Positions 14,737 to 15,635 of a stretch of DNA of 64,000 bases are shown here, in pieces; the first letter of the stretch is position 1, and the number at the start of each line of letters is the position of its first letter. The translations under genes and the position numbers were made by a program. The notes under the pieces were generated by a model, which ran no database searches, had not been told where the DNA came from, and saw only the letters and a list, made by a program, of their open reading frames with translations. The stretch lies in the IMG/VR virus record IMGVR_UViG_3300042970_000025. One strand, 5' to 3'. The stretch is from a virus (taxonomy: Duplodnaviria; Caudoviricetes).

Positions 14737-14759
14737 TGATTTTCACCTCCTTCAGGGCA

Positions 14760-14790
14760 AAATAAAAGCACCTCCGAAGAGATGCTTTAA
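14760..14790 (-). terminator. Terminator of the moron inside the late operon
   Basis: Minus strand aaagcatctc TTCG gaggtgcttttattt. Confidence 0.75.
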
Positions 14791-14803
14791 ACCCATAATG
14801 ATG

Positions 14804-14980
14804 TTAGTCTATACGTTCCCACCTTGGGTGGTGCTTACCATCCGGACTACTAACACATTTACCACTAGGCATTGGTGGATTCATGGAAGGAGCTCCGCTG
14901 TAATCCAGTCTTCTTTGTCCAGCGGGATTAGATTTCCCACAAAAGATACAAACACTTTTCCATAAGATTTGATTTGCCAT
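14804..14980 (-). CDS. Small 58-aa Cys/His protein (moron, absent from ORF track)
   Basis: MANQILWKSVCIFCGKSNPAGQRRLDYSGAPSMNPPMPSGKCVSSPDGKHHPRWERID*. Purine-rich RBS (ggaaagaaggg), own promoter and terminator. Confidence 0.75.
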   Translation of the reverse strand: MANQILWKSVCIFCGKSNPAGQRRLDYSGAPSMNPPMPSGKCVSSPDGKHHPRWERID

Positions 14981-15023
14981 TACTACCCTTCTTTCCTAAA
15001 TAACACGAAATATTTTCAATTTC

Positions 15024-15057
15024 ATGGTACCCCCCCCCCCCCCGGGTATTCTGTCAA
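15024..15057 (-). promoter_or_regulatory. Sigma70-type promoter with poly-G (G14) spacer tract
   Basis: Minus strand TTGACA-gaataccc-G14-TACCAT. Spacer currently 22 nt. Confidence 0.65.
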
Positions 15058-15099
15058 GAGTAATTTTCATACTATTCCATTCTCTTATCTATTGGGTAC

Positions 15100-15294
15100 C
15101 TAAAACCGGTCAAAATCTTCCTGAGTCGCGACTCTACGGTATTTCACGCTGTCATTTGCTTTCTCTGTCCAGATGTCTAAGACAAGCCCAATGGAAAGAA
15201 GGTCCAGGTCGCGGATGGAGATTCCAATTTCTGTGCAGCGCAGAAGAAAAAGCGGGGTGGTCATTTCCCGCTCACTTCTGCGCGTCCTTTTTTT
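15100..15294 (-). CDS. Tail assembly chaperone C-terminal extension (GT-like, -1 frame)
   Basis: Frame ...KKRTRRSEREMTTPLFLLRC...QEDFDRF overlaps the chaperone end and is reached by -1 slip at A AAA AAA. Confidence 0.7.
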   Translation of the reverse strand, partial: KKRTRRSEREMTTPLFLLRCTEIGISIRDLDLLSIGLVLDIWTEKANDSVKYRRVATQEDFDRF

Positions 15295-15635
15295 GCCTGC
15301 ACATCTGTCACAAGGTTGCTTCCCCAGAGCTCTAAGATCTCCGGAAGCACCTGGTAGATGGAAAACATCTCGAACTGGTCGAGCCATTCGTCGATGGTCT
15401 TTGGAATCGTCGGATCCGCATGATAAGCCATGATGTAGGCGACGTTTTCAAAAATCTCAAGGTCGTCGATTTCAAGCTCTTCAGAATCTGTCGCTTTAGC
15501 CCGGTAGGATTTTTCGAGCTTCGACAGGTCCTTAAAGATGTCCCGCTTGAATTTGAGCCGGTAAATACGTGGAATTGCAGCAGACGAGCGGAACGTGACC
15601 GGTTTTCCGCTGATCTCGATTGTCTTTTCAAGCAT
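15261..15635 (-). CDS. Tail assembly chaperone (G-like)
   Basis: Between major tail and tape measure genes; IPRIYRLKF.RDI, EWLDQFEMFSIY. Confidence 0.85.
   Translation of the reverse strand: MLEKTIEISGKPVTFRSSAAIPRIYRLKFKRDIFKDLSKLEKSYRAKATDSEELEIDDLEIFENVAYIMAYHADPTIPKTIDEWLDQFEMFSIYQVLPEILELWGSNLVTDVQAKKGRAEVSGK

Follow-up and report, generated by a model that had tools for sequence, protein, structure and literature searches.

Homopolymer tracts that separate the hexamers of a promoter are textbook switches for the surface antigens of Neisseria, Haemophilus and Bordetella. The locus described here raises the question of whether a temperate phage carries a switch of the same kind, with a run of guanines controlling expression of a single accessory gene. 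We addressed this question by examining the anatomy of the cassette, its distribution among related phages, the length of its tract in other copies, the promoter spacing that each length imposes and the family to which the encoded microprotein belongs.

Organization of the cassette

The window is the whole 64,000-nt stretch of viral DNA (Caudoviricetes) that was analyzed. Inspection of the window reveals a compact cassette between the tail chaperone and tape measure genes. The cassette, its elements and its neighbors, all encoded on the - strand, are as follows.

14737..15099, - strand: moron cassette of 363 bp, from the stop of the chaperone T frame to the start of the tape measure gene
15052..15057, - strand: candidate -35 hexamer TTGACA, 6 of 6 consensus positions, read from the sequence
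15051-15044, - strand: gaataccc, between TTGACA and G14, read from the sequence
15030..15043, - strand: G14 tract within the promoter spacer, read as C14 on the + strand; the sister allele has G9
15024..15029, - strand: candidate -10 hexamer TACCAT, 4 of 6 positions with A2 and T6 kept, read from the sequence and with a scanner
14986..14997, - strand: RBS-like AGGAAAGAAGGG, moderate, 5 nt before the ATG, read from the sequence
14804..14980, - strand: P0001 gene, encoding a 58-aa microprotein of predicted CCCH zinc-knuckle type, identified by homologues, invariant residues, an AF2 model and an RNA contig
14756..14788, - strand: intrinsic terminator with a 10-bp stem, UUCG loop and U-run, from folding; 3' boundary of the slot
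15635-15261, - strand: tail assembly chaperone, G frame, with chaperone matches to phrog_709 and phrog_3033; 5' border of the slot
to 15100, - strand: tail chaperone, -1 T frame, ending at 15100, frames read from the sequence
15294-15288, - strand: A7 slippery run in the chaperone gene, joining the G frame to the T frame
14736-12295, - strand: tape measure protein, 813 aa (PHROG tape measure match, 1.7e-114; Pfam PhageMin_Tail); 3' border of the slot
16268-15648, - strand: major tail protein, neighbor of the chaperone gene

A preliminary description of the window had placed an AT-richer insert between the tail chaperone and tape measure genes, reading TTGACA-gaataccc-G14-TACCAT, a ribosome-binding site, ORF 14980-14804 and a cUUCGg terminator, and every element was found where that description had put it. 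Coordinates and base composition agree as well, with a GC content of 41.6% for the cassette (39.3% without the tract) versus 50-53% in the flanks. The tract had further been singled out as the sole long G/C homopolymer, and indeed no other G/C run in the 64 kb exceeds 6.

The spacer from TTGACA to TACCAT measures 22 nt in the G14 allele of the window, and a further 43 nt, AGGAAAGAAGGG included, lead from the end of TACCAT to the ATG of the microprotein gene (14980). The terminator hairpin, AAAGCATCTC-TTCG-GAGGTGCTTT followed by a T-run (14788-14756), forms 10 pairs with an energy of -17.3 kcal/mol and a z-score of -4.8 versus shuffles. The microprotein gene and the late operon share the same orientation. 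In the neighboring chaperone gene, the slippery site is a canonical A_AAA_AAA (-1) sequence at 15288-15294 and is kept in L003, the IMG/VR contig that carries the sister allele.

The cassette occupies a variable cargo slot

Related loci were collected with the chaperone protein as query, and 160 of them were fetched from species genomes and IMG/VR. The gap that separates the tape measure start from the T-frame stop was measured in 133 loci, a number that includes the window and L101, which is the L003 contig fetched a second time. The slot is unoccupied in 64 of these 133 loci, where the gap is 11-108 nt, and filled in the other 69 by inserts of 341-1983 nt that represent 47 unrelated cassette types (loci in the range L015-L174). 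Close relatives lack the cassette altogether, with 11-24 nt between the chaperone and tape measure genes (14 nt in NatCom_3357), and a contig in run X13 presents the empty site directly, with 14730 joined to 15099. Phages whose flanks are 94-99% identical carry different cassettes or none. Runs X2 and X6 contain a second phage variant with other sequence between ~14787 and 15140, as judged from loose contig ends; a search of IMG/VR and of the 160 fetched loci for a 30-mer of this alternative cassette, GTAAACAAAACTATTCACTTAGACAAACTT (+ strand), came up empty.

Comparison of the inserts reveals a common 3' end. The last 30-55 nt, consisting of the terminator hairpin and the tape measure RBS, are common to at least 20 otherwise unrelated cassettes, and the exact hairpin ends two very different ones (L097, at 3950, and L151, at 4280). 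This shared end may act as a recombination anchor for the swapping of cassettes. Empty-site phages are without the block of hairpin and RBS, and in occupied sites late transcription has to pass through the slot's terminator hairpin.

The cargo of the slot is mostly composed of toxin-antitoxin, Abi and TIR genes. A Pfam tally returned RelB/ParE, YoeB, PIN, SocA/Panacea, Abi_2 (AbiD), TIR and an Mrr-type nuclease, along with SUKH immunity accompanied by a GHH nuclease toxin (Tox-GHH), GNAT acetyltransferases, SMR efflux and a group II intron RT. Given such company, a conflict-related role in the lysogen would fit the microprotein as well. Many slot-cassette ORFs match no family, and the diverse slot, with its conserved terminator as a 3' border, would be a place to look for new genes of defence and counter-defence.

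A moron is defined by insertion between genes that are adjacent in relatives (Juhala et al. 2000, per PMC3594210), by deviant base composition, by a promoter and terminator of its own and by expression from the repressed prophage (PMC3594210). The preliminary description had used this term for the cassette, and the name is borne out by the 11-24 nt gap of the relatives, by the lower GC content and by the clear terminator, together with a promoter that is called, at 10/12, in the G9 allele alone. That the cassette is a moron and the microprotein gene real is, in our estimation, very probable.

Tract length differs between near-identical alleles

The same cassette is present in the IMG/VR contig L003 with a tract of G9, where the promoter region reads TTGACA-17 nt-TACCAT. 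Additional copies were found in sequencing runs, for which the evidence consists of Logan contigs, an assembly form in which minor variants within a sample are dropped. Wastewater run X13 contains the G9 allele, with 5 bases missing at 15030 and with I57M as in L003, while a 412-nt contig in the sludge runs X2 and X6 covers 14758-15169 with 0 differences from the window, G14 included. The preliminary description had predicted G9 in homologous prophages, and it is this length, with a 17-nt spacer, that the sister allele has. Tract length is thus polymorphic between near-identical alleles (G14 versus G9), one of which provides optimal spacing.

Alignment of the window with L003 localizes the differences precisely. 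Between the stop of the T frame and the terminator end, the two differ by the 5-nt tract indel, one substitution (I57M) and nothing else; 3 further substitutions all fall in the tape measure leader. Identity over the whole cassette is 98.9%, in contrast to 87-92% for the flanking genes (87.3% for the major tail gene, 92.3% for the chaperone and 87.6% for the T-frame end). A near-identical cassette amid flanks of this divergence indicates that the cassette recently moved or recombined between diverged phages. With a single SNP in 335 nt against a change of 5 nt in the tract, the tract evidently mutates far faster than single bases, and it is hypermutable relative to the rest of the cassette.

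The only lengths seen are G14 and G9, 5 nt apart and each tied to its own SNP (I57 and M57, respectively), and no length between them occurs among the window, L003, X2, X6 and X13. Given two lengths without intermediates, separate SNP backgrounds and a G14 tract that is the same in three assemblies, the locus looks like two fairly stable alleles rather than one engaged in rapid switching.

A tract of this length is far beyond chance expectation, and runs of its kind are scarce in the wider setting of the locus. Across 828 kb of related loci, G/C runs of at least 8 are confined to this cassette and one G8, and Eubacterium sp. F2, host to a sister phage, has no G/C run of at least 9 anywhere in its complete 2.4-Mb genome. 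The lone other G8 (L048:3041-3048) lies in the RBS region directly upstream of the tape measure gene of an empty-site relative. Eubacterium sp. F2 was also considered as the host species of the window and rejected, the host genes being just 67% identical. A search of genome contigs with the gapped promoter pattern returned no match.

Tract length determines the spacing of the predicted promoter

We next consider what the two tract lengths imply for the predicted promoter. The homopolymer lies between the gene's -35 and -10 hexamers, which is the porA/opc type of arrangement, here for a promoter that is itself predicted. A consensus scanner called TTGACA-17-TACCAT at 10/12 in the G9 allele and called no promoter in the G14 allele. 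Modelling of tract lengths from G5 to G16 yielded a 16-18 nt spacer from G8-G10 only. The best alternative available with G14 is a weak 8/12 pair, TAGATA-17-GAAAAT, which the G9 allele shares. The -10 hexamer TACCAT is itself weak, with 4/6 matches and without a TG. By chance, the share of 113-nt regions that contain a site of at least 10/12 is expected to lie between 0.6% under the window Markov model and 4% under the cassette composition, and such a site with a perfect -35 arises in 0.1% of simulated 113-nt regions.

Under the rules for sigma-70-type promoters, a spacer of 22 nt is expected to be inactive. The 5-nt difference would rotate the hexamers about half a helical turn relative to one another, and from these spacing rules the G14 allele should be OFF. 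The gene points the same way as the late operon and would therefore be read during lytic growth at any tract length, without needing a promoter of its own.

RNA evidence comes from a bioreactor metatranscriptome (X16), where one contig of 165 nt, at a depth of 2.3, covers 14811-14975, inside the ORF. It is the only RNA-library contig on the 4 kb, and the tail genes are without any. The contig is a hint that the microprotein gene is expressed; the run was located through this very stretch, the contig leaves its allele and strand open, and uncovered parts of the stretch are not in themselves a sign of silence. Four further RNA runs (X17-X20), with small word shares, carry no weight here.

Explanations for the tract

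The reading that we favor is a moron with one gene and a sigma-A-type promoter whose spacer consists mostly of slippage-prone poly-G, such that tract length would fix the distance from -35 to -10. With G9, the distance would be the optimal 17 nt and the promoter active in the lysogen. With G14, the hexamers would lie 22 nt apart, out of phase by about half a helical turn, and the promoter would be silent, leaving read-through from the late operon as the gene's only source of transcript. That is to say, tract length would gate a real promoter, with G9 and G14 as its ON and OFF states. The reading further takes the phage to be a temperate siphovirus that infects Clostridia and has the Ca. Heliusvirales gut phages as relatives, and P0001 to be a cytoplasmic CCCH zinc-knuckle protein of an undescribed family, with metal binding that is predicted. 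We assign this reading as a whole a probability of about 0.5 and describe the locus as probably a spacer switch of the porA type, carried by a Clostridia phage. Tract changes that are frequent and reversible would be required for phase variation used as bet-hedging, and this stronger proposition we regard as doubtful.

The main rival reading is a mutational accident, whereby a once-working G9-type promoter was disabled by a one-off expansion to G14, or the tract drifts neutrally while the gene is expressed from the late transcript. Such an accident would suit the presence of two lengths only, each fixed on its own SNP background with no intermediates, as well as a G14 tract unchanged across three assemblies (window, X2 and X6) and a gene co-oriented with the late operon. 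It would also suit the absence of the homopolymer from every other family member, none being found upstream of the gene at ten other family loci. What makes the accident rather unlikely in our judgment is that long G runs are purged elsewhere, yet a tract of at least 9 persists in both lineages at the position where its length matters most, that one of the two lengths gives the 17-nt optimum, and that the 5-nt change, set against a lone SNP in 335 nt, reflects a much higher mutation rate in the tract.

The remaining alternatives dispense with a promoter switch altogether. The hexamers may be a chance match and the microprotein an extra late gene, expressed through lytic read-through from the chaperone gene; the -10 hexamer, with just 4/6 matches and no TG, the frequency of 10/12 sites in up to 4% of AT-rich 113-nt regions, the late-operon orientation and the gene's own RBS all lean this way. 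This is nonetheless improbable given a perfect -35 with optimal G9 spacing, a strong terminator that closes the cassette as in independent transcription units, other slot occupants that are typical of lysogen-expressed cargo, and an RNA contig on the ORF with none on the adjacent late genes. Alternatively, the tract could serve the + strand, where ATG-GTA-C14, starting at 15024, opens a 103-aa ORF (15024-15335) and C9 closes the frame after ~25 codons, so that length would switch the frame. The ORF has no Shine-Dalgarno sequence upstream and no Pfam match, and past 15100 it runs antisense to the conserved chaperone T frame; such long antisense ORFs are common, and a role for the + strand is very improbable. 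Least credible of all is a tract length that reflects a sequencing or assembly artefact. Several sequencing platforms are error-prone at homopolymers, and the preliminary description had itself raised this concern, but G14 is reproduced base for base in the independent Logan assemblies of two other runs (X2 and X6) and G9 is found both in X13 and in the IMG/VR contig.

Relation to known contingency loci and morons

The class of mechanism represented by the favored spacer switch is already known from the porA and opc promoters, and phage contingency loci are a recent addition, in the form of coding-frame tracts of lytic phages. The spacing of -10 and -35 controls expression from the porA promoter (van der Ende et al. 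1995, J Bacteriol 177:2475, cited in PMC5084427), and opc is under poly-C promoter control (Sarkari et al. 1994, Mol Microbiol 13:207, cited in PMC5084427). As these Neisseria meningitidis genes are presented in the citing article, the present locus resembles porA (poly-G) and opc (poly-C) in having a G/C homopolymer between the hexamers that sets their spacing, and in having natural alleles at optimal and at clearly non-permissive spacing. It is unlike them in that the carrier is a temperate phage of a Clostridia host instead of the chromosome of a Gram-negative pathogen, and in that the product is a cytoplasmic microprotein instead of a surface antigen. The step seen here is also 5 nt rather than +1/-1, and both switching and expression that follows tract length are predicted for this locus.

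With regard to its position, the cassette is akin to gene 15 of HK97, the founding moron (Juhala et al. 2000; Cumby et al. 2012; PMC3594210). Both occupy the same slot between chaperone and tape measure, with their own promoter and terminator and a deviant GC content, and both encode a small protein with chromosomal homologues outside prophages, gp15 being similar to YebO (PMC3594210). In contrast to HK97 gp15, an inner-membrane YebO-like exclusion protein, P0001 is without a membrane segment and belongs to an unrelated CCCH family. The HK97 promoter, for its part, is without a homopolymer.

Hypermutable tracts on phage genomes have been described as poly-G tracts in the receptor-binding genes of Fletchervirus (Sorensen et al. 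2021, Cell Rep 35:109214) and as SSRs in T2/T4 and other phages (bioRxiv 10.1101/2025.10.21.683753). These share with the present tract the property of being hypermutable mononucleotide runs on phage genomes, interpreted as bet-hedging. The Fletchervirus and T2/T4 tracts are mostly coding-frame tracts that act by frameshift in lytic phages, which contrasts with the transcriptional spacer tract considered here, placed on temperate-phage cargo that would be expressed in the lysogen. Within a limited literature search, no paper on a promoter-spacer tract on temperate-phage cargo was found. If true, a spacer switch on Clostridia-phage cargo would extend bet-hedging to prophage accessory genes and to anaerobic communities, and this group of Clostridia phages is widespread. 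The G9 and G14 alleles constitute a testable natural pair.

The microprotein belongs to a conserved family

The microprotein had been described as unannotated, and this held: P0001 has no significant model in PHROG, Pfam-A or PADLOC, with Pfam noise only (DUF4074, E 0.095). A word-indexed protein search returned P0002, the I57M allele, as its single match, and the exact P0001 sequence is absent from the protein collection. The orphan status suggested by the word-indexed search was overturned by an exhaustive phmmer search of 1.84 billion representatives with P0001 as query. This search recovered one tandem duplicate and ~25 small homologues of 52-64 aa that match P0001 end to end with 36-56% identity; source records call family members 'hypothetical protein' only. 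Six large matches (P0003, P0005, P0021, P0024, P0027 and P0032) were discounted as repeat-inflated chance matches to the CxxCGK stretch; four of the six are Ig-like/Calx-beta repeat or low-complexity repeat proteins, and the Pfam matches of P0027 are weak and unrelated.

Conservation of the ORF, on which the preliminary description had let its proposal depend, is therefore evident from ~25 homologues with invariant C, C, C and H. Inspection of the 26-sequence alignment identifies C11, C14, P35, C42, H50 and W54 as invariant and G15, P31 and G40 as nearly so, with the family consensus W-x-x-V-C-x-x-C-G-K ... G-x-P-x-x-x-P-P-x-x-x-G-K-C-P-S-S-P-D-G-K-H-x-P-x-W-E. Among the zinc ligands suggested beforehand, C11, C14, C42 and H50 coincide with invariant positions and H51 does not, leaving four conserved Cys/His ligands on two knuckles.

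An AF2 model built with the family alignment (pLDDT 87) presents a beta-hairpin with the CxxC at its turn, a Pro-rich loop bearing C42 and H50, and a C-terminal strand. A PDB profile search gave matches confined to Zn-knuckle motifs, and Foldseek returned no match with E below 1 for the P0001 model. The best VIA Z, 3.4, denotes a weak likeness to bL33-type ribosomal zinc ribbons, the aRF1 C-domain and MCM N-terminal Zn domains, and the fold and PDB searches identified no specific relative of P0001. The Atlas yielded unnamed small clusters with weak leads to putative zinc-binding DUFs and nothing more. The result is a newly delimited, conserved and unnamed 55-aa CCCH microprotein family.

JGI metagenome contigs and genome contigs gave no match to P0001 patterns, and annotated phage and plasmid collections gave none to P0001 by tblastn. 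The absence of the family from these annotated collections indicates that the phage copy is a rare capture of a chromosomal microprotein, comparable to the relation of HK97 gp15 to YebO.

Chromosomal relatives and their neighbors

The family was followed to ten loci in Anaerovibrio, Lachnospiraceae, rumen MAGs and one Synergistales genome (three copies), and their surroundings resemble variable islands. In L006, the family member belongs to an operon-like row that also includes an HNH-like protein and a GTPase-DUF697 protein, adjoined by a PD-T4-6-type kinase. In L010 (1541-5803), it lies between a LeoA-like GTPase directly upstream and homologues of BnzA/BnzB (Bunzi) downstream. Other family loci have DUF697-like proteins, a resolvase, ImmA/IrrE and TerB nearby. 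No neighbor is conserved at every one of the fetched loci, and a small downstream partner is common to two of them only.

The position of the chromosomal relatives beside GTPase/DUF697, kinase and Bunzi-type defence genes suggests that the phage copy may modulate such systems, and its own context would be compatible with a defence or exclusion function for P0001. A broader proposal, which we advance tentatively and consider unlikely as a whole, is that temperate phages of Gram-positive anaerobes carry promoter-spacer poly-G contingency loci through which lysogens would bet-hedge a moron, the phage copy being a defence or counter-defence factor that modulates the systems neighboring its relatives.

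Two further arrangements were noted among the chromosomal loci. In Anaerovibrio (L006 ~2830-2980 and L007 ~735-885), a second, divergent CxxC...C...H mini-ORF (MANPFIEYMCSHCGAKK...GRCPKRKNGKPHVW) lies immediately upstream, so that mini-ORF and family gene form a tandem zinc microprotein pair. In the Synergistales paralogues (L012:234-485, L013:2902-3153 and L014:2866-3153), the domain is in frame with a lipoprotein-type signal peptide (MKKLMLSVF..LLVGC) in ORFs preceded by a strong RBS, and by sequence the domain may be exported in this lineage.
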